Assembly (NCBI GenBank): GCA_043812815.1
Contig: JBDRLT010000040.1
Location: 35,724 to 99,723, forward strand
DNA length: 64,000 bases
DNA from: Candidatus Woesearchaeota archaeon
GTDB taxonomy: Archaea; Nanobdellota; Nanobdellia; Woesearchaeales; JAGVZT01
Reading direction: 5' to 3'
Position numbers and translations under genes: made by a program. The notes under the pieces are model-generated. The model was not told the DNA's origin and ran no database searches. It saw only the letters and a program-made list of their open reading frames with translations. How positions within the stretch are numbered: position 1 is the first letter of the stretch; each line of letters begins with the position of its first letter. Positions 4,289 through 51,369 of the stretch are shown here, piece by piece.

Positions 4289-4762
4289 TCATGTTGGATT
4301 GCACAGATTGTACATATTCCTGAAGAATGTCTCCGCATTATTCAGGCTCTCACTAGGGGGTTCTCTATTTGCCTGAGGTAAGGGCTGATAGGTAAACAAG
4401 CCCCGCTTGGATTTCTCTTTCTGGAATATGCCTAATAATACATCAGCCCTTATCATGATCTTTTCATAGATTCTAAGCAGTTCCACATCCATCTCTCCTG
4501 CATCAACCAGCTTCTTAAGGGCTTCGTAGGTCTTCTTGTGCTCTTCAGGCGCTTCGGTCTTGACATTTTTCGTGCCCAGGTAGGCTTTGGCACTATAGGA
4601 TATACAGGAGTAGCTGTGGGAAATGACAGAACTGTAGAATGTCAGAGGTTTCTTTAGCATAAAAACCTCCTTTTGGAGCTTCTCATCATTGGTTATCTTG
4701 AATACAATCCTTGCCAATTCCAGTTCATTTTCTGCTCTTTCAAGGTACAGGATTGAAACCAT
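4289..4762 (-). CDS. HEPN-domain protein (HepT-like toxin partner)
   Basis: 157 aa, all-alpha, directly downstream of and overlapping the MNT gene (canonical MntA-HepT order). HEPN-like 'R(x)4-6H' region. Confidence 0.55.
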   Translation of the reverse strand: MVSILYLERAENELELARIVFKITNDEKLQKEVFMLKKPLTFYSSVISHSYSCISYSAKAYLGTKNVKTEAPEEHKKTYEALKKLVDAGEMDVELLRIYEKIMIRADVLLGIFQKEKSKRGLFTYQPLPQANREPPSESLNNAETFFRNMYNLCNPT

Positions 4763-5363
4763 TTGCAGCGCCTCTCATGATCAGGTTATAAAATAACTGG
4801 CTATTATGGACGGGCAGGTTCTTTCTGGCAATCTCCTTGCCGACATTCTCGTAGTCTGCTTTGAGCATCTCCAGCATCTCAGGCGCGGTTATTATATGAT
4901 AGTCCAGTTTCAGAAGGGATTTATTGCTGGCAGAATGAAGAGCCACATCGATATTTTTCTTATGTGATTTGTCAGGTATAAATATTGCCAGATCAAAATC
5001 CGATCTATCGCTGGCCTTGCCTTCAGTATAGGAGCCGAATACCACAAGGGAATAGAAGATGATGTTAGAGAGTTCCTTGCTGACAATCCTAAGAGACTTT
5101 TGGGCAATACTTGGAAGCCTGTCCTGGCACAATAGCTCAAGATACAGAAACACTTTAGTATTAGATAAGTCAAGAGAGTATAGTTTTGAAGTGCCAACTT
5201 TCCTCTCTTTTACCAGGTTTTCTGTCTTGAATTGCCTGGTGGCTCGCTGAATGACTGAGTTAGACTTTTCTTTTGAATATGCCTTAATCTCTTTGAAGGA
5301 ATACTCTTTGAATATGTTCTTCTGAAATACGCCAAGCAGTTGCAGCTGTTTTTTAGTTATCAC
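4740..5363 (-). CDS. wHTH-fused minimal nucleotidyltransferase (MntA-like antitoxin)
   Basis: 'VVFGSYTEGKASDRSDFDLAIF' matches the GSx9-13DxD nucleotidyltransferase signature. N-terminal ~90 aa is wHTH-like. Overlaps the downstream HEPN ORF by 23 nt. Confidence 0.75.
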   Translation of the reverse strand: MITKKQLQLLGVFQKNIFKEYSFKEIKAYSKEKSNSVIQRATRQFKTENLVKERKVGTSKLYSLDLSNTKVFLYLELLCQDRLPSIAQKSLRIVSKELSNIIFYSLVVFGSYTEGKASDRSDFDLAIFIPDKSHKKNIDVALHSASNKSLLKLDYHIITAPEMLEMLKADYENVGKEIARKNLPVHNSQLFYNLIMRGAANGFNPVP

Positions 5364-5584: not shown

Positions 5585-6067
5585 TCAGCCGTTTTTCTTT
5601 AACTCTGCTTGGAATTCACTTCTGATTTCCTTAATCTTCTTCTCATTTAATTTGATAAGAATTGACTTACATTTAACTAAGAATTCAGGAGCTTTTGTAA
5701 TCATTTCATTATATTGCTCATCAGGAACAGTCCTATCAATATAATATTGAGAATCTATTCTTGCCTTTAACGAGTCCTCTGTAAAACCCAATTCTTCCTC
5801 TTTGAAATAATCTTTAAGGTATCTCTTTGCAAATTCTATAGTGCATGAATGGATTTCACATTTGATTCCGATTTTTGTCAAAATGGAATAAAGCGAGAAA
5901 TACAGGGTGTAATATGCAGTTGAAATCCTCCAATCTTTTATGATATTTACCCTCATTGATTCAAGAGCCTCTTCAGCTTTCTTAACATAAGCTTCTGCAA
6001 GATTGGAATTTGGTTCAATTAAGTTTAATCCTCCTTTCTTCCCAGCACACCATCTTATCTTATCCAT
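5585..6067 (-). CDS. HEPN-like protein (second module)
   Basis: 160-aa alpha-helical protein immediately downstream of and overlapping the NTase gene. Same architecture as 4289..4762. Confidence 0.5.
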   Translation of the reverse strand: MDKIRWCAGKKGGLNLIEPNSNLAEAYVKKAEEALESMRVNIIKDWRISTAYYTLYFSLYSILTKIGIKCEIHSCTIEFAKRYLKDYFKEEELGFTEDSLKARIDSQYYIDRTVPDEQYNEMITKAPEFLVKCKSILIKLNEKKIKEIRSEFQAELKKNG

Positions 6068-6650
6068 TATTTAGCACCTTTTGTATGAATTGCTCCACAT
6101 TAACAAAAACAATATGGTTTTTCAATATTTCTTTTAATAAAATATCTTTATTTATATTCTTTTCAAAAGTTTCCATAGGATAACACTTCACGCTTATAGC
6201 TATCCCTAAAATCCTTGAAACTTTTTTAATTTCTTCTCTATTATAATCGCCTGCTACAAAAATGTCTAAATCGGATTCTTTATTTTGTGTTCCTTTGGCA
6301 TAGCTTCCAAATATAATCCCTATGCCGTTGATATTTGGAGTTATCTTCTCTATAATCTCCTTTAGCATAAGATTGTTTTCTAAAAGTGAGATTGCCTTAT
6401 GTTGTTCAACAAAAACAAGATATTTTTTTGTAAATTCGCTTAATTTTATTTTATATGCTTTAATCTTACCTTTTGTCTTTGATTCAATAACTCCTTTATC
6501 TTCTAAACCTTCAAGAATAAGTTGTGCTGTTCTTGGACTTATTTTTAGTAATTTTCCAACTTCTCTGATATAATATTCTCTGTTAAAATCATTTGTAAAC
6601 AGAGAGAGGACTTGCAAAGTATTTTCCGTTATACTTAGTTTTTTATACAT
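6060..6650 (-). CDS. wHTH-fused minimal nucleotidyltransferase (second MntA-like copy)
   Basis: 'IIFGSYAKGTQNKESDLDIFV' NTase signature. N-terminal wHTH ('LKISPRTAQLILEGLEDKGVIE'). Overlaps the downstream HEPN-like ORF by 8 nt. Confidence 0.75.
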   Translation of the reverse strand: MYKKLSITENTLQVLSLFTNDFNREYYIREVGKLLKISPRTAQLILEGLEDKGVIESKTKGKIKAYKIKLSEFTKKYLVFVEQHKAISLLENNLMLKEIIEKITPNINGIGIIFGSYAKGTQNKESDLDIFVAGDYNREEIKKVSRILGIAISVKCYPMETFEKNINKDILLKEILKNHIVFVNVEQFIQKVLNNG

Positions 6651-7749: not shown

Positions 7750-10700
7750 TTAACCCAAACCATCTGCGGCGCATGATAGTATATGCTTTTTGCAAATGCC
7801 ATTCTCACAAATTAGTTCAAAAAGCAGGGAACCAAGTAAGCTCCAGCATCCACAAAATCTTTTAGTAGGTTCAACATAGGTCACACTTCCCCGAGTAACT
7901 TCATTGCATTCATAAATAAATCTATTATCTTTTTGATCACAATATGGATTGTCCGGACAGCCAGGGGCATAGCACAATATTTTACCATCAAAAATCATAT
8001 AGCGATAATTGGATGGACATTTAGTACAATAGCCAGACATGTGTTTATTAAGCCCGCTACAACATGCATCAGTATCTGTAAATTCTTCACCTTCATCTAT
8101 ACATCCGAGGATAGAAGCAGTATTTTCTGGCCGACATTTGCAATCGCGGTTGCAATTTAATCCTTCAACACAAGAGTCGCCAACATAGTGCTTATTACAT
8201 AAAGGATCAACTTCAGATGAACAAAATTTATTACACTGATCAACGAACATATCACCGCTTTTTTCTTCAACGGAATATTGGGAACATTCTTTACATCTGT
8301 AATATACTTTTGAGATTGGTCCATCGCATAGTCTATAGCAACTGAACCCTTCAGTGCGAGATGGATCCTCGCTATCCATCTTGCACTCTTCAAGAACAAC
8401 TGGGTCCTTATCATCCCATAAATTGGTGTCACAAACCTCTCCGGAGTCAAGATATCCATTTCCGCATATATCACTTTCAACACATTCTCCTTGGTGATTC
8501 CAGATCTTATTACTATCTCCTGCATCACAGGGACGGCCGGGTATATGACCTGAAGCCATTTGTGTTTTACAAATATTAAATTTATTACACGGCGTATATA
8601 GATAATGTTTCTGATCCATAGATATACAGTCAGATTGTGTTTCTTGAGCGCAGCTGACCTCCTGTCCTGATGTTGTCACACAACAACCAATACTATCTTG
8701 GCTCTGAATACATGCTGCAAGCGTATTACATGGAACATCAGAAAAGTACTCTGGATTCTCCATAATACATTTACTTGATCTAATATTATCTGTACATACA
8801 CTACTAACTATGCAACACCCATATCTATCAGTATCATACAATTCTGGGCACTCGCTTAACCCATATGGTTCTTCTTTATCTCTGCATGAACCTGTAGTAA
8901 CTCTTGAAGCACGCTCAGATTTGCAGCATTTAATAGTTGAAACCTCATCACAAGGTCCATCCTTGATACCATCTTCACAACAGAATTTACCCTTATTACC
9001 ATCATATTCATCTTTGCCACAGATACACCCAGCCAAACCCTCTCCCCACTTGGTCTGATCAGCCTTTGTTAGAAGTGTGTTTTTTGGACATATTATCTTT
9101 CCCCTTGTGAGGTCTTCACTATTACAAACCCCCCCTTCTAAAGATATGAAACCAATTGAACTTGTAACCAATGGATGGCATAGATCCATCTGTCTCACTT
9201 CAGGACCTTTTTTTATTATTAGATCGATCAAAGCGCTGAGTTCCTTACCATCCCTCTCACCATCATCTGTACAGTCGCCATCACATCCACAAAGATAATT
9301 TATCCTGTGCTGGACTTTTATTCCTGAACCTTCTTCAGACTTGCATATTTCTGAGTTTGCTGCTTTTTGATTGAAGAATATGCCACTGCCCTTTATTTTC
9401 ATGGTTACTTTGGCATAAGCGCAACCGTCAAATTTTCCATCATTTTCTTTGTTTTCAACATAGACCCAGAGTTCATTCTCACCTGATTTTATCTTACCCT
9501 CAGTTATTTCATTGAAACCATCAACATTTTCCCACAGACTTTTAGTTGACCATGTAGCCATACTTTGTTTTTCTACTTCACTTGGATTGAATACAATACC
9601 CCTTGTTCCGTCACATGCTGGTTCATCGCCACCGCAGCTTCCGCAGGTATCTTCCCCACAATCCACAGAAACAGAAACATCAGCATTACCTTCCGCATCT
9701 GTTATTACAAGCCCATTATCTCCAGCAACGGTAAATTTAAGCATGCCCCACCCTCCTGCGCCTTTTGGACCTGAAGGATAACCATAGGTTGCATGCGGGG
9801 CAATTTCAACATGAAAATCAAAATTAGAGGGATTAATACCCCCGGCTGCATCTTTTTCCGCAGTGACTGTGACTCTACACCCTTTTATTTCATTGCCTTG
9901 TTCATCATGATCCATTATCTGGTCATTTATCCAGCCATTTGTTTGTAAATCCTCATATTGTTCATTGGTTAATCCCAATTCAGATTTTACCTTTTCAATA
10001 CACTTTTCATACAGTTCATCCAAGTTCACACTGCTACATGCACTAATTCTTCCTTCGGTAGGATTAGTATTATCAATCAACGGGTTATATTGATAATCTT
10101 CACATGCAACCTGGCTAGAATCTTTGAGTTGATCAAATTTCAGATAATCAATGGGTTTACCATTTGTTCCACATTCGCTATTTGGAATAGAACCTGTGAT
10201 AAGGCTAGGATTGGGCGTAATATCTCCAGCTGTCTCATAAGTATTTCCTCCAACTTCCACAGGCCTAACATGCCAGTCATATAAGCGAGAATCTTCTAAA
10301 ATAAACGCTGTTTCAAACAACCCAGGTTCAGATACTTCCCAGTTATCCTTTGGCATTTCTTGGCATGTCTTTAATGTTCCGCAGCTTTGGACAAATACAA
10401 GTTCAGTAAATGAATATTCTTCTACTGATTCGTCATCTTTCTTAACTGTCCTCACTCCCGTAGCTACCTTGGTGAAATGGCTTATTGTGCCTGTCAGAAT
10501 ATTGTTTTCAGTATCAACTGTTGTTGGGATGGATTTCCAGAAGCCTGCTGATTCATCAAAATAGGCAAGCACAAGATAAGGTTCATTCTCTGCTAATGGA
10601 GGAGGTACATCATTTTCATCATATCTAACCTTGATAGTAATTGGCGGGTCAAAAGTTGCGCCGTCTGGTTTGCCGTCATAAATAATGGTTCCAATAATAG

Positions 10701-11355
10701 GGGCATTGCTCATGCCCTGATTGTTTCTGTCAAGCATATTGAATTCAACATCATTAATAGGGTTGCCATCAGAATTGGTAATTCTTGTGCCGGCAGGGAT
10801 ATTGACCTCAGCATCAGCATCAGGCGTCCTTATTGTTTCTTCTTGGGTTGTACGGCCATTAGAATCTAGAGGCAGATTGGTGGCAGTTGAGGTTTTGATA
10901 TAATTGTTAAACTGGTTAAGTGCCTTAATCTCATCTCCTTTTTTCAGGCTAACTTTATAATCAAGATCAACAATAACTGCTGTTGGTTCGATTTTGACAT
11001 GAGGAATAGCAGTGCCTGCGGTTACTTGGAAACCTTGGTTTTCAAACTCCTGGAAGTTAATGCATTCAGGTAAGGTACTAGAAATATATGTTTCAAAGGT
11101 TAAGGGCAGGTTAGGATCCTCATAGCTTACTCCAAAGAGATCGATGGCCTCATAGGTTTTGGCATCCAGGCAGGTTGTGACATACTCCTTAAGTGCTGTG
11201 TTGGCTGATGCCAGTGTAATTTCTTTTTCAAATTTTGGCTGGAAGCTTTCTGCTGCCTTTTGTCTTGCCATGTAGCTGAATCCCCAGAATGCAGCAATTA
11301 TCACAAAGGCAATTATCAAGAACGGAACAATCTGGGCTTTTTTCAAGTTATTCAT
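7750..11355 (-). CDS. Giant secreted/surface protein with Cys-rich C-terminal region (adhesin-like)
   Basis: 1201 aa. N-terminal 'KKAQIVPFLIIAFVIIAAF' signal/anchor. The C-terminal ~450 aa is extremely Cys-rich (CxxC / CGxxC spacing), typical of extracellular disulfide-rich modules. Confidence 0.7.
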   Translation of the reverse strand: MNNLKKAQIVPFLIIAFVIIAAFWGFSYMARQKAAESFQPKFEKEITLASANTALKEYVTTCLDAKTYEAIDLFGVSYEDPNLPLTFETYISSTLPECINFQEFENQGFQVTAGTAIPHVKIEPTAVIVDLDYKVSLKKGDEIKALNQFNNYIKTSTATNLPLDSNGRTTQEETIRTPDADAEVNIPAGTRITNSDGNPINDVEFNMLDRNNQGMSNAPIIGTIIYDGKPDGATFDPPITIKVRYDENDVPPPLAENEPYLVLAYFDESAGFWKSIPTTVDTENNILTGTISHFTKVATGVRTVKKDDESVEEYSFTELVFVQSCGTLKTCQEMPKDNWEVSEPGLFETAFILEDSRLYDWHVRPVEVGGNTYETAGDITPNPSLITGSIPNSECGTNGKPIDYLKFDQLKDSSQVACEDYQYNPLIDNTNPTEGRISACSSVNLDELYEKCIEKVKSELGLTNEQYEDLQTNGWINDQIMDHDEQGNEIKGCRVTVTAEKDAAGGINPSNFDFHVEIAPHATYGYPSGPKGAGGWGMLKFTVAGDNGLVITDAEGNADVSVSVDCGEDTCGSCGGDEPACDGTRGIVFNPSEVEKQSMATWSTKSLWENVDGFNEITEGKIKSGENELWVYVENKENDGKFDGCAYAKVTMKIKGSGIFFNQKAANSEICKSEEGSGIKVQHRINYLCGCDGDCTDDGERDGKELSALIDLIIKKGPEVRQMDLCHPLVTSSIGFISLEGGVCNSEDLTRGKIICPKNTLLTKADQTKWGEGLAGCICGKDEYDGNKGKFCCEDGIKDGPCDEVSTIKCCKSERASRVTTGSCRDKEEPYGLSECPELYDTDRYGCCIVSSVCTDNIRSSKCIMENPEYFSDVPCNTLAACIQSQDSIGCCVTTSGQEVSCAQETQSDCISMDQKHYLYTPCNKFNICKTQMASGHIPGRPCDAGDSNKIWNHQGECVESDICGNGYLDSGEVCDTNLWDDKDPVVLEECKMDSEDPSRTEGFSCYRLCDGPISKVYYRCKECSQYSVEEKSGDMFVDQCNKFCSSEVDPLCNKHYVGDSCVEGLNCNRDCKCRPENTASILGCIDEGEEFTDTDACCSGLNKHMSGYCTKCPSNYRYMIFDGKILCYAPGCPDNPYCDQKDNRFIYECNEVTRGSVTYVEPTKRFCGCWSLLGSLLFELICENGICKKHILSCAADGLG

Positions 11356-11448
11356 TTTTTTATTAGTAAATTTACAAATTTTTGTGCTCTTTATATATTT
11401 TATGTAATTCAGAAAGATTTTTATATTAGCCTTGAATGAGTACAGTGT

Positions 11449-12009
11449 ATGAATTTGAATGATTTCGGCAAATTTTTCAATTATGCTTTAGGGATTGTGA
11501 GGTTGGATACAACTTCGATCAAACATGTTGTGAAGCATAAAGATGCAACCAGCTGGGCGGTTGTTTTTGTGGTTTTGGCAGGCTTGGCCTCTGCTTTGTT
11601 CAATGATTTCGGTGGAGTATTGGATTTTGTTGTTGGGTTTTTGCTTTGGTCGTTTTTCAGCGTGGGCGTAGTGTGGGTTTTGGCAAAGGTTTTTGGCGGG
11701 AAGGCGAGTTATGTTGAGCAGTATCGCGCTCAGGGTTTGGTCTATGCGATGTATTGGGTGGCTGCGCTGCCTTTTGTCGGTTCAGTTCTTACAGGAATTG
11801 CCCAGCTTTGGAGTCTGGTTGTTGCGGTTGTTGTTGTGAGGACTGTTCATAAGATTACTAGCTTGAAAGCGTTTCTGGCTGTTTTCATCCCTGTGCTGAT
11901 TGCGGTTGTGCTGTTTGCAGTGTTTATTACAGCTGCTGTGTCTTGGCTGATTGCCAACGGAGGATTACCACCAGAAATGATTGCTGAGCTCCAGAGTTTT
12001 ATGCCTTGA
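11449..12009 (+). CDS. Yip1-family integral membrane protein
   Basis: 186 aa with a hydrophilic N-terminus followed by 4-5 TM helices. Resembles Yip1/DUF1282 membrane proteins. Confidence 0.55.
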   Translation: MNLNDFGKFFNYALGIVRLDTTSIKHVVKHKDATSWAVVFVVLAGLASALFNDFGGVLDFVVGFLLWSFFSVGVVWVLAKVFGGKASYVEQYRAQGLVYAMYWVAALPFVGSVLTGIAQLWSLVVAVVVVRTVHKITSLKAFLAVFIPVLIAVVLFAVFITAAVSWLIANGGLPPEMIAELQSFMP

Positions 12010-12658
12010 AGTCTACCTGACCGTCAAGGTACACTCCCTGGTAGAGCTTCACCGGCCGCCAGCTGTCAATCACAGTTTCAGCCTTGAGCCATTGGGCCAA
12101 CTGTTCTGGGTTTCCAATGGTTGCGCTAAGGCATATGAATTGGGCGTTCAAGATTTCCTTGAGAATTGTCAGGAGGATTTCCAGGGTTGGGCCTCTGCTT
12201 GGATCATTCAGGAGATGTATTTCATCAACCACCACCACTTTGATGAGTTTCAGCCAGGGTGAGTGATGCCTTGTCAGACTGTCTAGCTTTTCGCTTGTGG
12301 TTATTATCAGATCATACTCCATAAGGTAGGTGTCTGCAGAGTCAATGTCTCCAATGGTGAGCGCAATTTTGATCAGGTGGCCATAGCGTTTGCTGAAGTC
12401 TTTGAATTTTTCATGCGCCAATGCTTTGAGCGGCACAATATAGACTGCTTTGCCGCCTTCCAGGATGGATTTAAGCATTGCTAGTTCTGCGATGAGGGTT
12501 TTACCAGAAGCTGTAGGGGTGCAAACCAAAAGGTTTTTGCCTTCTAATAGCCCTTGATTTATTGCCTTTTCCTGCGCAGGCCTGAGTGCTGAGATTTGAC
12601 TGGAAAGAACCTGTGCAAGCGGGGCTGGAATTTTGTCTTCAATATCTTTGAGATTCAT
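11999..12658 (-). CDS. Ski2/Hel308-like DEAD/DEAH helicase N-terminal RecA domain only (truncated; possible pseudogene remnant or stand-alone domain)
   Basis: Walker A 'TPTASGKT', motif II 'VVVDEIHLL' and motif III 'SAT' are present. The ORF stops after ~219 aa exactly where helicase domain 2 should begin, and its 3' end overlaps the convergent Yip1 gene. Confidence 0.6.
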   Translation of the reverse strand: MNLKDIEDKIPAPLAQVLSSQISALRPAQEKAINQGLLEGKNLLVCTPTASGKTLIAELAMLKSILEGGKAVYIVPLKALAHEKFKDFSKRYGHLIKIALTIGDIDSADTYLMEYDLIITTSEKLDSLTRHHSPWLKLIKVVVVDEIHLLNDPSRGPTLEILLTILKEILNAQFICLSATIGNPEQLAQWLKAETVIDSWRPVKLYQGVYLDGQVDFKA

Positions 12659-40938: not shown

Positions 40939-43900
40939 TTGAAAAAGATGGTGAAGGCGCAGTTTTCTTTTGAATACTTGGTAATTTCAACTTTCGCGCT
41001 AGTTAGTGTTGGCGCTTTTGTTTTTGCCATCTATGCCCAGATTAGCAGAAAAACAGCTGAGTTTGATGCAGTGCAGCTTGATCGGTTCGGCAATTCAATT
41101 ATTGACACTGCAAATCAGCTGAGTTATGCTGGTGGCCCTTCTAAGCTTACAAAAGAGGCTGTGCTCCCGAGTAATGTTGTGGATGTTTTTGTTGCTCACA
41201 ACAATTATCTCATTTTCGCGTATTTGGGAGGGGGTATTTTGAATGACAGGGTGTACCACTCCAGAACAAATATTGCGATTGATATGGAAGAGACCAGCGA
41301 GGGACTGAAGACATTGGTTATTGAGTCGCTGGGGAATTATATCTCAATATGCTCGAAGACTGCTGCCTGGCGCTGCAACCAGTTTTGTGAAATCAGCCTG
41401 GGCGAGAGTGCTGACGCAGCGCCTGCTGACTGCTGCAAGCCGGATTGCTCTGGGTGTAACACAAGCCAGGCAGATGGTGATTACAGATTCTGCGGTTCTG
41501 ACGGGCTAAACCACACCTCCTGTCACGGGCACCATGGGTGTGATCTCTCAGGTGAGTTTTGTGTTAATGAGGATTTGGATGGTTATGGGCTGAATAGCAG
41601 TATATTCTGCCCTTATTTGGGAGAAGATTGTGATGATGACACCTCTGATGATCCGGCAGGATGCCCAGAAACTAAGGAGGGCTGTGATACTGCAGAAGAA
41701 GCTCAGTGTGCTATCTGCATACATCCTGGTGCTTTTGAGAATGATATTCCGAAATGCTCTGACTGGATTGATAATGACTGTGATGGTGATGTTGACTGCG
41801 ATGATTCGGACTGCGGCTGCCTTTCAATAATTGATAGCTTTGATAGTGCTGAAAATGTAAGCTCTGCTCCTAATCTGGTTGTGAACACCACTCTGGGAAT
41901 GGTTTTGTTGGAAGGGTATAATGGCACACAAACTGTTTTCAATGATTCAGCACAGATAAACATGACTTTCCTTAGCAATGGTTCTGAGATTATTGGATGG
42001 ATCAGATTGCCTACCTGGGCGAATGTGATTAACTCTTCTGTGGAGCTTGAGGGGATCGGATTGCCTGCAATGTCTCCTTTTGTATACTCATGGGATGGAA
42101 GCAATTTTGTTTTTGAAAGTGATTTCTTTTTGGGAAGGGATAGCAGTATTAAGGAAGGCTGGAGTTATGTTGAGCTTAAACATATAAGTGAACCGATTTT
42201 AAGGATTACTAATGAATTGGATGAGATAGATTATATTGACAGCCTGAAATTGATTGCATTTACTCAGACAGAATCTTTTGCTCTTGAAGTGGTGAATCTC
42301 TCCCCTGGGTGCGTTTTGGATGTTAGTGAAGATGATGCCAGGTATTTGATATTGCAGAAAGGTGATGAGGTTTATGTTGAGTTTGAAGCATTACCTGCTG
42401 GAACAACTCGGGTTGAGCTGGCTGCAAATGGGTTTTTTGTTAGGTTGAAACCAAGCATTGTCAAGGTTGGTAACAATATTGAGGTAAATTCTGGCAGCAA
42501 TAAGGTTATTTTTGAACCATATATTAAAGTTAATCATGTCATACTACCACTTGAGGAGTATACTGAATTTGTTAATTATGAAGTTGTTGAAAATAATGCT
42601 GAGCATGGGACAAAATTCGGTGTCAAATTTTATTTTTTGGAGAATACTGATGAAATAGATAGTATTATTCTAAATGTTGTAGAGAATGTTGGAAATTTGA
42701 GGGCTGAGCAAGATATCCTCCACTTTGGAGATTCCCTAATAGATTTTGGTGATATTCGCGAATCTGGCTTTGAGTTGGGGGTTGCTAATGAGGGCATTGT
42801 TATTGGAAACTTAAATGAATTTCTTATTAATAATACACTATGGATAGATCCTACTGTTAACCTGACACCTTATATGGATACCACAATCTGCAGATGGGAT
42901 AATTGCGGTAGCAATCCATGTTGGCAAACAGCATTAATCGCTATGAATTGGGGTTCTGATTACAATAAGGCCTTGTTGATATGGGATTTGTCAAGTATAC
43001 CAGCAGATTCACAAATAATCATTGCAAGGCTATACTTTTTGGCCAGTGCATGGCATGGTGGTACTTTACCACACCCTGAAATTGCAGCATATCGAATACT
43101 GGAAGAATGGGATTGCCAGACTGCCACAAATTGGTACAGAATGACTGGGGTTGGTTGGTCTAATATGGGGTGTGATGCGCCGGACTCCCGTGCTGTGACT
43201 GAGGATGATTCTGTTGTTATTGTAAATGTTTACATATGGTATAATCTAAATATTCTGCCGAGTACAATCTGCTGGGTATCAGGAAGTTGCAGTAATTATG
43301 GAGTAGTACTGGTAAATATTGCAGATCCAACCAGCCTTCATATGCCGTCAAGAGAATCAAGTGGAGGAAAGCCATATCTATTCTTGAGTTATAAGTTAGC
43401 AAATGGCCATGCGTGTTCATTAAATGATGATTGCATTTCCGGTAATTGTGCTGCAGACTATGATGGCAATGGTAAATTCTGCGCTCCTGTTAACAATTGT
43501 GTGCACTCTGACATTGCTACATGTAATCCTGTGTGCTATGGTTATACAAGCGGAAGCAATTATTGTACACAACAAGGTAGTGGTCAGACTCCAGGATCCT
43601 ATGTAAGCTGCACCAATGCTGTTTGGGGTCCAATAACAAGCTGCGGATATACCAACTGGAACCAATGTAGTGACGAGGGCTCGCCCAATAATTGCCTGAA
43701 AGGCAGAGATGTACGGACGTGCTTAAGTGGTGCATGTAATGATATTACTGGTGAAAAGAACTGGTCAGTTCTAGGGATAGGGAATGTATGTTCTGGAGCG
43801 GGCAATGAGATTGTTGGGAGTTGTACCAACCGCTGTGGGTATTCTGACTGGAATGTTTGCTCAGTCTCTGGGTGTCAGAAAATCAGAGATTGCTTGGCAT

Positions 43901-45000
43901 GTACTAATCTAAACACCTGCGGTGTGGATGTGGGTAATAGCGCTGAAAACTGTCCTGCTGATACTGCTTGCTCAACAATATTGGGGTATGCTAGTTGCAA
44001 CTCTTCCTACACCTGCAACGCTTCATGGGCCTGCTCTATTGCGTCGGGTAATGATAATTATAATATTGGTGATCCTTGGAACAACAGATGCCAGGCAAAA
44101 TGTGATGGTTCAAATAACTGTGATTATGCCTCTAACTGTGCTCTAGCAGCTGGGACTCCAGCGCAATGCTTCTGCTCAGCTGATATTTGGCAGGTATGCA
44201 CTCAGACCACACTTGTTTGTTGGGAGACTCTCTGTACAAGCGCAAATCCCAATCAATGTGAGAATAGCACTATGGCTCCGCAGAATTATTCAGCGTGCAC
44301 TGGAACAACAGGATGTACAGCTACTGGACCAACTGTAAAAATATGTGGTTGTGACGGCTTGGGCAATTGTGTTGACACTTGCGATGATGATATTTGCCAG
44401 CCATGGGAGAATGTAGAAACTTGCAGGGCAGATTGTATGTACTGGCCTGTCAATGTTAGTGTAAACTTTGGGGATACTGGTGCGGATGACAGTTATTGGC
44501 CGGGTGAGCTGAATGAGACCAACTCACCGTTAACAATTAGCCTGAACAACAGTAAATTGACGAATATTTTAAATGGCTGCAATTGTCCTGGGTGCTATGT
44601 GGCGGGGTGGTGTGTTCTGCCGATAAGGGTGAGCACAGACCATAATGGGACTGTAAAACTTGATGATGTCAGCATTGATTACGCGGATTATGAATTGCAG
44701 GGGGTGTTAGAATCAACAAATCTGCTTTTAGGGAAAACGGTTGGTTTAATAATCTCTTTTTCCTATGACTGCACGCTGGAGCCGCCTTACGAACTCTGGG
44801 TGCAATTCTCAAATGACGATGATTACTGGTATGATGCTGATGGAGTGCTAGACAGCTCAACAAGAATGCAGGATGGTAAGCATCTTATACCCCTAACAGA
44901 TTTTGACTGGAGAGATAATTACTTTAAATATAGAATCAATTTTGTTTCAGATGGATTGTATACACCAAAATTAAAAGAGATAGAAATAAAATATCTCTAA
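40939..45000 (+). CDS. Giant (1353 aa) Cys-rich surface protein with pilin-like class III signal peptide (putative adhesin)
   Basis: N-terminus 'MKKMVKAQFSFEYLVISTFALVSVGAFVFAIYAQ' matches the archaeal type IV pilin-like (DUF361-type) prepilin pattern K[GA]|QxSxE[FY]+hydrophobic. 'DNDCDGDVDCDDSDC' metal-binding-type Cys repeat. The C-terminal ~400 aa is very Cys-rich. Confidence 0.7.
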   Translation: MKKMVKAQFSFEYLVISTFALVSVGAFVFAIYAQISRKTAEFDAVQLDRFGNSIIDTANQLSYAGGPSKLTKEAVLPSNVVDVFVAHNNYLIFAYLGGGILNDRVYHSRTNIAIDMEETSEGLKTLVIESLGNYISICSKTAAWRCNQFCEISLGESADAAPADCCKPDCSGCNTSQADGDYRFCGSDGLNHTSCHGHHGCDLSGEFCVNEDLDGYGLNSSIFCPYLGEDCDDDTSDDPAGCPETKEGCDTAEEAQCAICIHPGAFENDIPKCSDWIDNDCDGDVDCDDSDCGCLSIIDSFDSAENVSSAPNLVVNTTLGMVLLEGYNGTQTVFNDSAQINMTFLSNGSEIIGWIRLPTWANVINSSVELEGIGLPAMSPFVYSWDGSNFVFESDFFLGRDSSIKEGWSYVELKHISEPILRITNELDEIDYIDSLKLIAFTQTESFALEVVNLSPGCVLDVSEDDARYLILQKGDEVYVEFEALPAGTTRVELAANGFFVRLKPSIVKVGNNIEVNSGSNKVIFEPYIKVNHVILPLEEYTEFVNYEVVENNAEHGTKFGVKFYFLENTDEIDSIILNVVENVGNLRAEQDILHFGDSLIDFGDIRESGFELGVANEGIVIGNLNEFLINNTLWIDPTVNLTPYMDTTICRWDNCGSNPCWQTALIAMNWGSDYNKALLIWDLSSIPADSQIIIARLYFLASAWHGGTLPHPEIAAYRILEEWDCQTATNWYRMTGVGWSNMGCDAPDSRAVTEDDSVVIVNVYIWYNLNILPSTICWVSGSCSNYGVVLVNIADPTSLHMPSRESSGGKPYLFLSYKLANGHACSLNDDCISGNCAADYDGNGKFCAPVNNCVHSDIATCNPVCYGYTSGSNYCTQQGSGQTPGSYVSCTNAVWGPITSCGYTNWNQCSDEGSPNNCLKGRDVRTCLSGACNDITGEKNWSVLGIGNVCSGAGNEIVGSCTNRCGYSDWNVCSVSGCQKIRDCLACTNLNTCGVDVGNSAENCPADTACSTILGYASCNSSYTCNASWACSIASGNDNYNIGDPWNNRCQAKCDGSNNCDYASNCALAAGTPAQCFCSADIWQVCTQTTLVCWETLCTSANPNQCENSTMAPQNYSACTGTTGCTATGPTVKICGCDGLGNCVDTCDDDICQPWENVETCRADCMYWPVNVSVNFGDTGADDSYWPGELNETNSPLTISLNNSKLTNILNGCNCPGCYVAGWCVLPIRVSTDHNGTVKLDDVSIDYADYELQGVLESTNLLLGKTVGLIISFSYDCTLEPPYELWVQFSNDDDYWYDADGVLDSSTRMQDGKHLIPLTDFDWRDNYFKYRINFVSDGLYTPKLKEIEIKYL

Positions 45001-49845: not shown

Positions 49846-51369
49846 CTATCCAAAGATGCGCTTAAAGAAGCTGACAAGGCCATCAACAAACGCTTTGAGG
49901 ATGTTAGGTTTCTGCTGCGGTGGTTCAGCTGGTGTCGTGACAGTGGTGTTCGGAACTTGCTTGGCCACAGGGATTTCTTGAGGCGTGGCAGTTGGTTGAA
50001 TGTGCTTCTTGACTGTTAGGGAGGCTGTTGCTTTGGATTCAAGGAATTGATAGTACTGCGTACGGTATTTGCAGTTAAAGTCGATTTGGAATTTTGTGTC
50101 CTTGTCTGCAGATGGTGCCCTGAAGAGAATCTGGCTGAATTTGTAGGTTTTTTCAGGGTTGATCGCCGGAACTTCAAAAGCGAGTTTGCCAAAAAGTCCA
50201 CTTGTGAGGGTGCAGCTTACATTGAAAAAGGGGTTGTCTTTGTCTTGGTTGGTGATAGATGGCCGCACAGAGTAAGACTGATTGTATGATAGACTTGTTG
50301 CGTTGAGCTCAACAGCTGGATTGACTTTGCCTATTTTGATTTCAAGTGCGTCCTTAAGCGTTAGCACATGCCTGAGGTATGCGTCCTGGTACTCATTGTA
50401 TGAATTACTTGCGGTTTCTGTGGTAAGGTTATACTTGCCAGAATTGGCGATTCTAAAACTGAAGGAAAATGTTTTGATTTCATTTTGCATAACAGAACCG
50501 CTCCAGGTGATGAGGTTACCTGTTTTTTCAAGAGGAGATTGAGCTGATACCACTGTTAAGGCTTTGGGAATAAGGATTTTGATCTGATCCACTACTGCCT
50601 CGCGGCTGCCTGTGTTTTCAATGGTCAGTTGATATGTGATTTTGTCTCCCAGTTTGGGAGCTGCTGGTGAAATCTTGGTTGTGGATTTGAGGGGGTTTGG
50701 TGGACTCACAACCTTGATTTTCAGCTCGTTGGATTTTTTCGAGGTCACCTGTGATTCATATTCATAACCTAGCTGAGCTTGAATGGTTGTGTTTATTGGC
50801 TTGACCAGTTTAATAGTATATGTGAAAGTTGAAATGTCTGTAATGCTGGGTTTTTCCCACACAACTGAGTTTAATTTTTTGGTGACAGTGGTGTCAACAA
50901 GTTCGAATTGTGGTGGCAGCAAGCTCGCATATACCACTTGGTGTATTCTATTCTGCCCTTTGTTTTCAACGGTCACTGTTATTTTTGCAGTCTCACCCAG
51001 TTGCATCTGTGTTTTGTCCGCTGCAATAGTGAGTGTTACCTGGGGCGTCAGTGGTGCGATTGTCAGGTGTATCTCAGGGATGCTTGTTTCTGTCTCAACA
51101 ATGTGGATGCCCTGATGAGCGCTGAGGTTGAAACGGCTTTCTGGATAACAGATCCTGTAGTAGGGTGAGGCTTCGCATTCGGTTTTGCCTATCATATAAA
51201 AGTGAGAATCCTGGTCAACTGTGAGAATATCCCAGCGCTGATTTACTTTTGTAATGAAGGTCTGCCCGTCAAAGCTGATATTGGTGCCGGCAAGAATCCA
51301 CTTGTCATAATTCTCAGCCTGCACAGCTGCGATCATAATTACTGTGAGCATAATGATTATGGGGCGCAT
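49846..51369 (-). CDS. Secreted/surface beta-rich protein (DUF11-like repeats), hypothetical
   Basis: Signal peptide 'MRPIIIMLTVIMIAAVQA'. Ser/Thr-rich beta-strand repeats. C-terminal 'TPAEPPQQKP' linker and a short hydrophobic tail. Confidence 0.5.
   Translation of the reverse strand: MRPIIIMLTVIMIAAVQAENYDKWILAGTNISFDGQTFITKVNQRWDILTVDQDSHFYMIGKTECEASPYYRICYPESRFNLSAHQGIHIVETETSIPEIHLTIAPLTPQVTLTIAADKTQMQLGETAKITVTVENKGQNRIHQVVYASLLPPQFELVDTTVTKKLNSVVWEKPSITDISTFTYTIKLVKPINTTIQAQLGYEYESQVTSKKSNELKIKVVSPPNPLKSTTKISPAAPKLGDKITYQLTIENTGSREAVVDQIKILIPKALTVVSAQSPLEKTGNLITWSGSVMQNEIKTFSFSFRIANSGKYNLTTETASNSYNEYQDAYLRHVLTLKDALEIKIGKVNPAVELNATSLSYNQSYSVRPSITNQDKDNPFFNVSCTLTSGLFGKLAFEVPAINPEKTYKFSQILFRAPSADKDTKFQIDFNCKYRTQYYQFLESKATASLTVKKHIQPTATPQEIPVAKQVPNTTVTTPAEPPQQKPNILKAFVDGLVSFFKRIFG

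Follow-up and report, generated by a model that had tools for sequence, protein, structure and literature searches.

A giant cysteine-rich protein of a Woesearchaeota archaeon with a prepilin-type N-terminus and a predicted self-cleaving ZU5/GAIN-like domain

How would a giant, cysteine-rich protein be held at the surface of a DPANN archaeon, and what could it do there? The question is raised by the gene at 7750-11355 on the reverse strand of a 64,000-nucleotide stretch (the window) of contig JBDRLT010000040.1 (129,882 bp) of a Candidatus Woesearchaeota archaeon. The open reading frame (ORF) exists as initially annotated: it starts with ATG, is uninterrupted over 3.6 kb, and its 1201-aa product is identical in length and sequence to the NCBI entry 'MAG: hypothetical protein ABIG95_05195 [Candidatus Woesearchaeota archaeon]' (MAG, metagenome-assembled genome), which forms a singleton cluster. 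The explanation that we favor, with moderate confidence, is a pilus- or membrane-anchored, self-cleaved, sheddable giant surface adhesin of this Woesearchaeota (DPANN) archaeon. It draws on a ZU5/GAIN-like domain, a purge of N-glycosylation sequons, and the pilin-cluster context of a homolog, none of which was mentioned in the initial annotation. The gene and the central module are as follows.

7750..11355, reverse strand: whole gene, 1201 codons plus stop (stop codon 7750-7752), ATG start
10441..10887, reverse strand: aa 157-305, ZU5/GAIN-like ("MAIN"-type) beta-sandwich as predicted by AlphaFold2 (AF2)
10471..10479, reverse strand: H293-F294-T295, predicted autoproteolysis motif with scissile bond F294/T295, in the turn between strands 286-293 and 296-302 (AF2)

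Database matches of the 1201-aa protein are restricted to aa 157-297 and belong to surface proteins of Chloroflexi (Dehalococcoidia) and methanogens. In these relatives the domain has no Pfam annotation and adjoins CARDB, PKD, and NosD/beta-helix domains; tblastn of the domain against plasmids gave no match. Residues 1-330 were folded with AF2 using an alignment (A1) of 21 homologous domain segments, and the predicted fold of aa 157-305 is a GAIN_B/ZU5-type beta-sandwich, with a predicted local distance difference test (pLDDT) score of ~90. According to Foldseek against the PDB, the best structural matches of the domain model are ankyrin ZU5 domains, followed by BAI3 GAIN and NLRP1, a set that corresponds to the autoproteolytic domains which Zhang et al. 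grouped as the "ZU5 superfamily" (PMC3482391).

Between the last two strands of the sandwich lies an H-x-S/T motif with a hydrophobic middle residue, here H293-F294-T295. The conservation of this motif was assessed in 160 loci collected from species-representative genomes and JGI metagenomes with the pattern PDGATF[DS]P[PA], which is located ~60 residues upstream of HFT, and the selection is thus independent of the motif itself. The 172 unique domain sequences have His at position 293 in 159 cases and Phe (149) or Leu (17; together 166 of 172) at position 294, while position 295 is Thr in 147, Ser in 19, and Cys in 2, i.e., a nucleophile in all 168 ungapped sequences; these are among the best-conserved columns. 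In GAIN domains, cleavage takes place at H-L-T/S. As for other self-cleaving proteins, PIDD and Nup98 are cut at HFS, and CARD8 and NLRP1 at SFS; in these the motif is located at the C-terminus of ZU5, just ahead of a long strand, and the nucleophile can be Ser, Thr, or Cys (PMC3210808). The family consensus after the motif, x-F-A-[IV]-[IL], also resembles the Stachel peptides of G-protein-coupled receptors of the adhesion class (aGPCRs), such as TYFAVLM of GPR56 and TNFAILM of GPR133 (PMC8326393, PMC8215292). Taken with the predicted fold, the motif makes autoproteolysis between F294 and T295 likely.

GAIN-like domains called MAIN were recently reported by Brogan and Rudner (May 2026) to be widespread in bacteria and archaea, typically in large, envelope-tethered proteins, and the authors' structure-based parser labels them ZU5 or GPS; in the MAIN domain of Bacillus subtilis YfkN, HFS is cut between F and S, Ser-to-Thr replacement is tolerated, and the fragments stay non-covalently associated (bioRxiv 10.64898/2026.05.12.724683). 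Earlier work had predicted ZU5 autopeptidases for bacterial surface proteins of large size and, at their N-terminal base, for toxins (PMC3482391). As modeled, aa 157-305 has the fold and the motif that define the MAIN family, the comparison with YfkN being one of described motif and fold.

Beyond the protein in question, the HF[TS] domain with the PDGATFDPP signature was found at 120 confirmed loci in species-representative genomes and at 529 in JGI metagenomes, often with several copies per Dehalococcoidia MAG, and it is not covered by Pfam-A (2025 copy). All 529 metagenome loci, which were obtained by a scan with the domain alignment, are domain-only matches, and none has the N-domain described below. 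Some relatives from Chloroflexi and other metagenomic sources (P0002, P0014, and P0018) have an N-terminal cytoplasmic helix-turn-helix (HTH) domain (HTH_3/HTH_31), a transmembrane (TM) segment, the HF[TS] domain, CARDB, and a C-terminal TM segment. Such relatives recall RsgI/SEAL systems and may be transcription regulators that are tethered to the membrane and cleaved mechanically.

Only one locus of the genome scan matches aa 4-298 of the 1201-aa protein and not the domain alone. It belongs to 'MAG: archaeon isolate MEGAHIT-group-2.59' (JBDRQT010000005.1; L001:5001-9119) and encodes a 1372-aa protein with 66 Cys (4.8%). The two proteins are collinear, with 29% identity over aa 4-299 (E 3e-38) and 27% over aa 616-861 (E 1e-9), and similarity fades past ~aa 860. 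The homolog keeps HFT and has the N-terminus MGKG/SITLYVIIGL (a slash marks a cut site here and below). Thus, the 1201-aa protein is neither a true orphan nor a fusion artefact of several genes, an option that the initial annotation had raised; an independent MAG carries the same parts in the same order. Judged by their alignment, the two proteins are a small, fast-diverging family, the distal third of which is barely alignable. Between anchor and sandwich, both proteins have a domain that is specific to them.

10888..11265, reverse strand: aa 31-156, N-domain confined to this family, modeled with low confidence (pLDDT 33-63) as largely helical

Two Cys of this N-domain (C62 and C98) are conserved in the homolog. 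Neither a word-indexed search with aa 1-160 nor a metagenome scan with the N-domain alignment revealed other relatives of it.

The neighborhood of the homolog is of particular relevance for the question of attachment. Upstream on the same strand of L001 (2218-4745) there are four genes (168, 336, 181, and 157 aa) and downstream (9193-10852) two small genes (90 and 87 aa, 6 Cys each) plus at least one more, all having [KR]-[GA]-Q N-termini followed by hydrophobic residues and no Pfam match. This arrangement suggests a pilin operon, one member of which is giant and resembles a tip adhesin. With four minor-pilin-like genes before the homolog and two small pilin-like genes after it, the order is reminiscent of fimU-pilVWX-pilY1-pilE; bacterial modular pilins and PilY1-type tip adhesins are among the closest known systems.

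Two further observations concern the same contig. Further upstream, the product of L001:24-2225 (+) is rich in Cys and 733 aa long; it combines calcium-binding repeats of the bacterial thrombospondin type 3 kind (TSP3_bac) with a TM segment past these repeats and a C-terminal tail rich in Lys and Glu, and is enriched in sequons (11 observed vs 6.3 expected). Residues ~1250-1310 of the homolog form a ~60-residue Gly/Ala-rich hydrophobic stretch near the C-terminus, glycine-zipper-like and Cys-flanked (GGVCGAVLTLGGALLGGVGVG...), which may be a membrane-interacting element. The corresponding place of the 1201-aa protein is taken by no more than a short hydrophobic loop, WSLLGSLLFELI (aa 1171-1182).

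According to the position of the domain, the 1201-aa protein is an unusual member of its superfamily. Among domain-bearing ORFs with a complete C-terminus, 144 of 154 end in a TM-like segment, and 50-250 aa past the domain are typical; the relatives in bacteria and methanogens keep the canonical MAIN order. In contrast, the 1201-aa protein has an N-terminal anchor, a juxta-anchor domain, and then 907 residues with no C-terminal TM segment, an inversion common to only one relative among the 154, the homolog described above. The canonical MAIN order of signal peptide, ectodomains, MAIN, and C-terminal anchor is therefore not the one found here. Under the model, cleavage would leave an anchored stub of ~290 residues containing nearly the whole sandwich, and the freed fragment of ~100 kDa would start at the last strand. 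This polarity, with release of the C-terminal piece, is that of FIIND (NLRP1/CARD8) and of the N-terminal ZU5 of polymorphic toxins (PMC3482391), whereas that of adhesion GPCRs and canonical MAIN proteins is opposite.

Comparison with each of these systems shows both shared and distinct traits. As in MAIN proteins and YfkN, the protein is large and predicted to be tethered, with H-x-(S/T) between the last two strands of a GAIN_B/ZU5-like sandwich; in that family, which includes archaea, fragments are held by the last strand and release by shear force has been proposed. Canonical MAIN proteins, however, are anchored C-terminally by sortase, SLH, or TM, whereas the anchor here is class III/pilin-like and N-terminal, and the ectodomain is an orphan Cys-rich region instead of known adhesion or enzyme domains. 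The ZU5 autopeptidases of polymorphic toxins (PMC3482391) share the near-N-terminal fold at the base of a long secreted protein and the predicted distal release, but they have CxH in place of HFT, and the archaeal protein lacks SpvB, beta-propeller, and RHS modules as well as toxin/immunity genes. Compared with aGPCR GAIN and the FIIND of NLRP1, CARD8, and PIDD, the 1201-aa protein is archaeal and predicted to be extracellular, and has no seven-transmembrane, CARD, or death domains, no GPS disulfides, and no detectable sequence homology. With its inverted polarity, class III anchor, and DPANN host, the protein would be a new architectural variant of the recently described MAIN proteins.

The N-terminus of the protein reads MNNLKKAQIVPFLIIAFVIIAAF, in agreement with the initial annotation, and comprises two features.

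11335..11355, reverse strand: aa 1-7, MNNLKKA, the basic n-region, with the A7/Q8 cut predicted for a class III (prepilin-type) signal
11278..11334, reverse strand: aa 8-26, QIVPFLIIAFVIIAAFWGF, the sole TM-like stretch according to the hydropathy scan

The predicted class III site has K at −2, A at −1, and Q at +1 (KKA/QIVPF) and is followed by 19 hydrophobic residues, which resembles the [KR]-[GA]/Q plus ~20 hydrophobic residues at the extreme N-terminus of archaeal type IV pilins and other class III proteins. AF2 predicts a helix over aa 2-37 (pLDDT 71-91), and QIVPFLIIAFVIIAAFWGF would act either as an alpha1 helix of the pilin type or to anchor the protein in the membrane. In a motif scan of ~48 ORFs of the window, a K-A-Q or [KR][GA]Q start followed by a hydrophobic stretch was found only at 7750-11355 and 40939-45000. 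The lack of Glu at +5, correctly pointed out before, is normal for archaeal class III signals: the decisive positions of signal peptidase III substrates are −2 (basic), −1, and +1, and many such substrates have no +5 Glu (PMC3387779). Ordinary pilins are, however, ~10 times smaller than the 1201-aa protein.

A sign of export comes from sequon statistics. The protein has 72 Asn and 166 Ser plus Thr, and yet not a single N-x-[ST] (x not Pro), compared with 9.4 expected from composition-preserving shuffles, none of which (0 of 5000) reached zero. In contrast, non-glycosylatable N-P-[ST] occurs 4 times (0.5 expected), and control tripeptides stay at expectation: N-[ST] (10 vs 10.0), [ST]-N (12 vs 10.0), D-x-[ST] (10 vs 12.2), and Q-x-[ST] (4 vs 4.5). 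The homolog shows 1 sequon vs 11.9 expected, and its seven pilin-like neighbors together have 1 vs ~9. For comparison, a 507-aa protein of the window with a Sec signal and DUF11/CARDB repeats has 8 (4.5 expected), and twenty other ORFs of the window together have 47 (43.3 expected). Selection against sequons would make sense only for a protein that meets oligosaccharyltransferase, i.e., an exported one. Thus, the purge argues for an exported protein and against a cytoplasmic location of the Cys-rich part, so that the extracellular placement, with one N-terminal hydrophobic helix, is supported. Together with the class III-type helix and a domain family whose partners are Sec signals, CARDB, PKD, NosD beta-helix, and C-terminal TM anchors, it indicates that this is almost certainly a giant Cys-rich exported protein, and we consider both export and the fold of the domain very likely. 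The purge is unusual and statistically strong, and provides evidence, drawn from the sequence only, for export and for a functional need to stay unglycosylated.

As for the remaining 75% of the protein, the following features are seen.

9676..10440, reverse strand: aa 306-560, acidic middle, with the homolog, weakly collinear here, as its sole detectable relative
8773..9510, reverse strand: aa 616-861, second block kept in the homolog (27% identity), with GC[IY]CG...[FY]CC and RxNYLxGC motifs
7753..9180, reverse strand: aa 726-1201, Cys-dense region (54 Cys, 11.3%), non-repetitive, no C-terminal anchor
inside 7753..9180, reverse strand: aa 1171-1182, short hydrophobic loop WSLLGSLLFELI, flanked by Cys

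In total, Cys accounts for 72 of the 1201 residues (6.0%), compared with 0.92% in 46 other ORFs of the window (binomial probability of at least 72, ~1e-34). According to the initial annotation, the C-terminal third was saturated with Cys pairs (CxxC, CGxxC, and CC) and belonged to a disulfide-rich machinery. A dense distal Cys region is indeed present, although it covers the last 40% of the protein rather than a third. Regarding the pairs, CC is present (5) but CxxC is rare (3), with 4 CxC and 4 CxxxC in addition. The mixed Cys patterns and low His content (1.2%) suggest that disulfides fit better than metal clusters; with an even Cys count as well, the disulfide-rich character is plausible but unproven.

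Neither the whole protein nor its sub-regions match any family in Pfam and NCBIfam up to E 10, and a PDB sequence search gave no match. An exhaustive HMMER search of 1.84 billion representative proteins with aa 300-1201 at E 0.001 returned only the protein itself; the homolog either is too weak there (pairwise E 1e-9) or is absent from that library. With a mean pLDDT of 35, the single-sequence AF2 model of aa 551-1201 carries no usable information, and no fold search was based on it. No internal repeats were found in the protein, and repeat scans detected neither DNA tandem repeats nor template/variable repeat pairs of the diversity-generating retroelement type. The adhesin role of this ectodomain is assigned by analogy, because of its position distal to the release module, its composition, and what is reported for DPANN, and we give it about even chances.

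The initial annotation also compared the protein with another giant of the window, at 40939-45000 (+), with the N-terminus (MKK)MVKAQFSFEYLV. This protein has 1353 aa according to the ORF list and 1350 aa, starting with MVKAQ, in the NCBI call. It is a singleton in a 5.8-billion-cluster database, contains a DNRLRE domain (aa 673-814) and 81 Cys (6.0%), and is enriched in N-x-S/T sequons (22 observed vs 15.5 expected) and in N-x-C (13 vs 6.4). The K-A-Q start was rightly described as common to both giants and the +5 Glu as limited to the 1353-aa protein, whose VKA/QFSFEY looks like a site of the EppA/DUF361 subtype, and the estimate that the two genes make up about 12% of the window agrees with the measured 11.98%. 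Relatedness beyond the N-terminus, however, was not borne out: pairwise BLASTP gives a best E of 2.5, and no repeat modules are shared. A profile of the 1201-aa protein and its homolog aligns with the 1353-aa protein over residues 1-25 only (hhalign, E 0.2, non-significant), and the 1353-aa protein has no ZU5-like domain. Paralogy of the two giants was rejected, the signal-type N-terminus being their sole common part.

The surroundings of the gene are those of an archaeal chromosome. The window encodes an archaeal-type SMC (equivalog match), aEF-2, aIF2-alpha, PAC2, and ribosomal protein S3Ae, as well as an ATP-dependent DNA ligase, an enzyme of the phosphoenolpyruvate synthase type, and pairs of minimal nucleotidyltransferase (MNT) and HEPN genes. 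Two such neighboring pairs, at 4289-5363 and 5585-6650 (-), lie just downstream of the target's neighborhood; MNT/HEPN modules amid housekeeping genes are reported to be typical of DPANN (PMC6393860). The 3' neighbor of the gene is a convergent gene for an 8-TM protein and the 5' neighbor a divergent Yip1-like membrane-protein gene (11449-12009, +), and a genome scan with the latter found no synteny. Its end is overlapped by the 3' end of a gene (11999-12658, -) for a Ski2/Hel308-like helicase of 219 aa, the N-terminal DEAD-box half alone, which may be truncated or split. The 507-aa protein mentioned above (49846-51369, -) has a Sec-type signal peptide and low Cys content (0.8%), and is the third predicted surface protein in the window. 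A possible promoter precedes the gene.

11390..11398, reverse strand: TATA-box-like ATATATAAA, 35-43 nt 5' of the ATG, read from the sequence

No Shine-Dalgarno motif is present between ATATATAAA and the ATG, and an archaeal promoter with a short leader is a possible interpretation.

Put together, these features suggest a protein of four parts. The class III N-terminus with its 19 hydrophobic residues would keep the protein in the membrane or, alternatively, prepilin peptidase would cut it so that it becomes the tip or part of the shaft of a type IV pilus-like fiber, as a giant "modular pilin". It would be followed by the small family-specific N-domain with one probable disulfide and by the ZU5/GAIN-type ("MAIN") sandwich, which is predicted to cut its own chain: Thr295, aided by His293, would attack the preceding peptide bond, with an N-to-O acyl shift and then hydrolysis. 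The fourth part would be the 907-residue, ~100 kDa C-terminal ectodomain, acidic, presumably disulfide-rich and glycan-free, and rapidly diverging. After cleavage it would remain docked in the sandwich solely via its first beta-strand (aa 296-302), and it could be freed when a partner to which it is bound, be it a host cell, a surface, or a polymer, exerts a pull.

Several observations weigh against this interpretation and lend support to its rivals. Regarding cleavage, the prediction is based on fold and motif: the domain alone has no Pfam match, including ZU5 and GPS, even at E 10, the domain family profile matches no PDB chain, and the post-motif strand is TKVATGV here, unlike the family consensus TxFA[IV][IL]. 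The domain might thus be a beta-sandwich with a structural or adhesive role only, within a giant adhesin whose chain stays covalently intact; many ZU5 domains leave their chain uncut, such as that of UNC5 and those of ankyrin (PMC3210808), the latter being the closest matches of the model by structure, and no sequence-level tie to proven autoproteolytic domains is seen. However, H-F-T stands exactly at the cleavage position of GAIN, MAIN, and FIIND, and the motif is missing from non-cleaving ZU5, with Leu in place of Phe in UNC5b (PMC3210808), which together with the conservation reported above makes a non-cleaving domain rather unlikely. Regarding the pilus, no pilin, pilus ATPase, platform protein, or prepilin peptidase gene is found in the 64-kb window, nor are relatives of the pilin-like genes around the homolog, so that pilus association is derived from the neighborhood of one homolog. 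The protein has no Pfam or NCBIfam match to Class_IIIsignal (DUF361) or pilin models, and pilins of DPANN are often missed by sequence-based searches (PMC6393860). N-glycosylation is the norm for archaeal pilins and archaellins (PMC4336324, PMC2952790), in contrast to the sequon avoidance of this family. Moreover, the n-region is short and positive charges also lie past the helix, so that an uncleaved signal-anchor is equally compatible. The same self-cleaving protein could then be a type II membrane protein, displayed on the membrane or S-layer and shed there. In contrast, K-A-Q directly abuts the hydrophobic stretch at the very N-terminus, as only in the other giant (QFSFEY, EppA/DUF361-type), and the sole true homolog is located inside a run of 6-7 pilin-like genes. 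Weighing these points, we put pilus association at slightly below even chances, and the version that dispenses with a pilus as such appears doubtful, although not far-fetched.

The distal part gives rise to further alternatives. No gene for oxidative folding is seen in the 64-kb window, and the Cys-rich 75% has neither a usable model nor relatives beyond the homolog, which also counts against the favored reading. The distal part could instead belong to a polymorphic-toxin-like effector, with an N-terminal ZU5 autopeptidase freeing a long stalk with a variable C-terminal toxin or lytic module directed at a host or competitor. In line with this, ZU5 is N-terminal at the filament base in bacterial polymorphic toxins (PMC3482391), a subset of MAIN proteins carry toxins (bioRxiv 10.64898/2026.05.12.724683), the C-terminal part diverges fast, and the homolog has its Gly/Ala-rich hydrophobic stretch near the C-terminus. 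However, family searches and repeat scans revealed no recognisable toxin domain and no RHS or filament repeats, the adjacent genes (8-TM protein and Yip1-like protein) are not immunity-like, and no toxin cassettes are nearby, which makes an effector very improbable. As for a cytoplasmic metal-binding protein, high Cys content alone speaks in its favor, while the 3 CxxC, the few His, the signal-like helix, the exported-protein domain family, and the sequon purge contradict it; this candidate was rejected and is effectively refuted. An assembly or gene-call artefact fusing several genes was rejected as well, considering the unbroken frame, the identical NCBI call, and the collinear homolog in an independent MAG. 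The chance that either of these two accounts is right is negligible.

The anchored, self-cleaved adhesin thus remains the favored reading, and it can be set beside published work on DPANN. The genes that have diversified most within populations of Nanoarchaeota are those for surface proteins and for parts of the type IV pilus, which have been linked to host attachment (PMC6142677). The 1201-aa protein resembles the giant surface proteins of DPANN/Nanoarchaeota as a large, lineage-specific, rapidly diverging predicted surface protein of an archaeon with a reduced genome; a GAIN/ZU5-type self-cleavage module, 11% Cys density, and sequon avoidance are not described in the parts of those reports consulted here (PMC6142677, PMC6393860). 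A more far-reaching version, which we consider improbable, is a contact-released "harpoon" of DPANN type IV pili, in which a GAIN/ZU5-type domain of inverted polarity would cut the protein in advance, so that one strand alone plugs the ~100 kDa ectodomain, disulfide-stapled and kept glycan-free, into a pilin stub. Binding to a host would pull the ectodomain off and leave it on or in the host envelope, where it might thread the host S-layer or engage the host membrane via the Cys-flanked hydrophobic loop near its C-terminus. If true, the ectodomain would act in archaeal episymbiosis as a hand-over device that mechanical force sets off, and GAIN-type mechanochemistry would be coupled to a pilus in what would be the first such case.

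Host recognition and attachment of DPANN are largely unknown, and their surface proteins are mostly unannotated. For one such giant, the gene at 7750-11355 offers a layout that can be tested: an anchor of the pilin type, a GAIN/ZU5-type module whose cut is predicted to fall exactly between F294 and T295, and a presumably disulfide-rich, sheddable ectodomain kept without N-glycan sites by selection. The abundance of the domain in Dehalococcoidia surface proteins, some of them HTH-fused, gives it relevance past the source genome. If the cleavage is real, the MAIN mechanism would be extended to DPANN archaea, to the release of C-terminal fragments, and possibly to pili.

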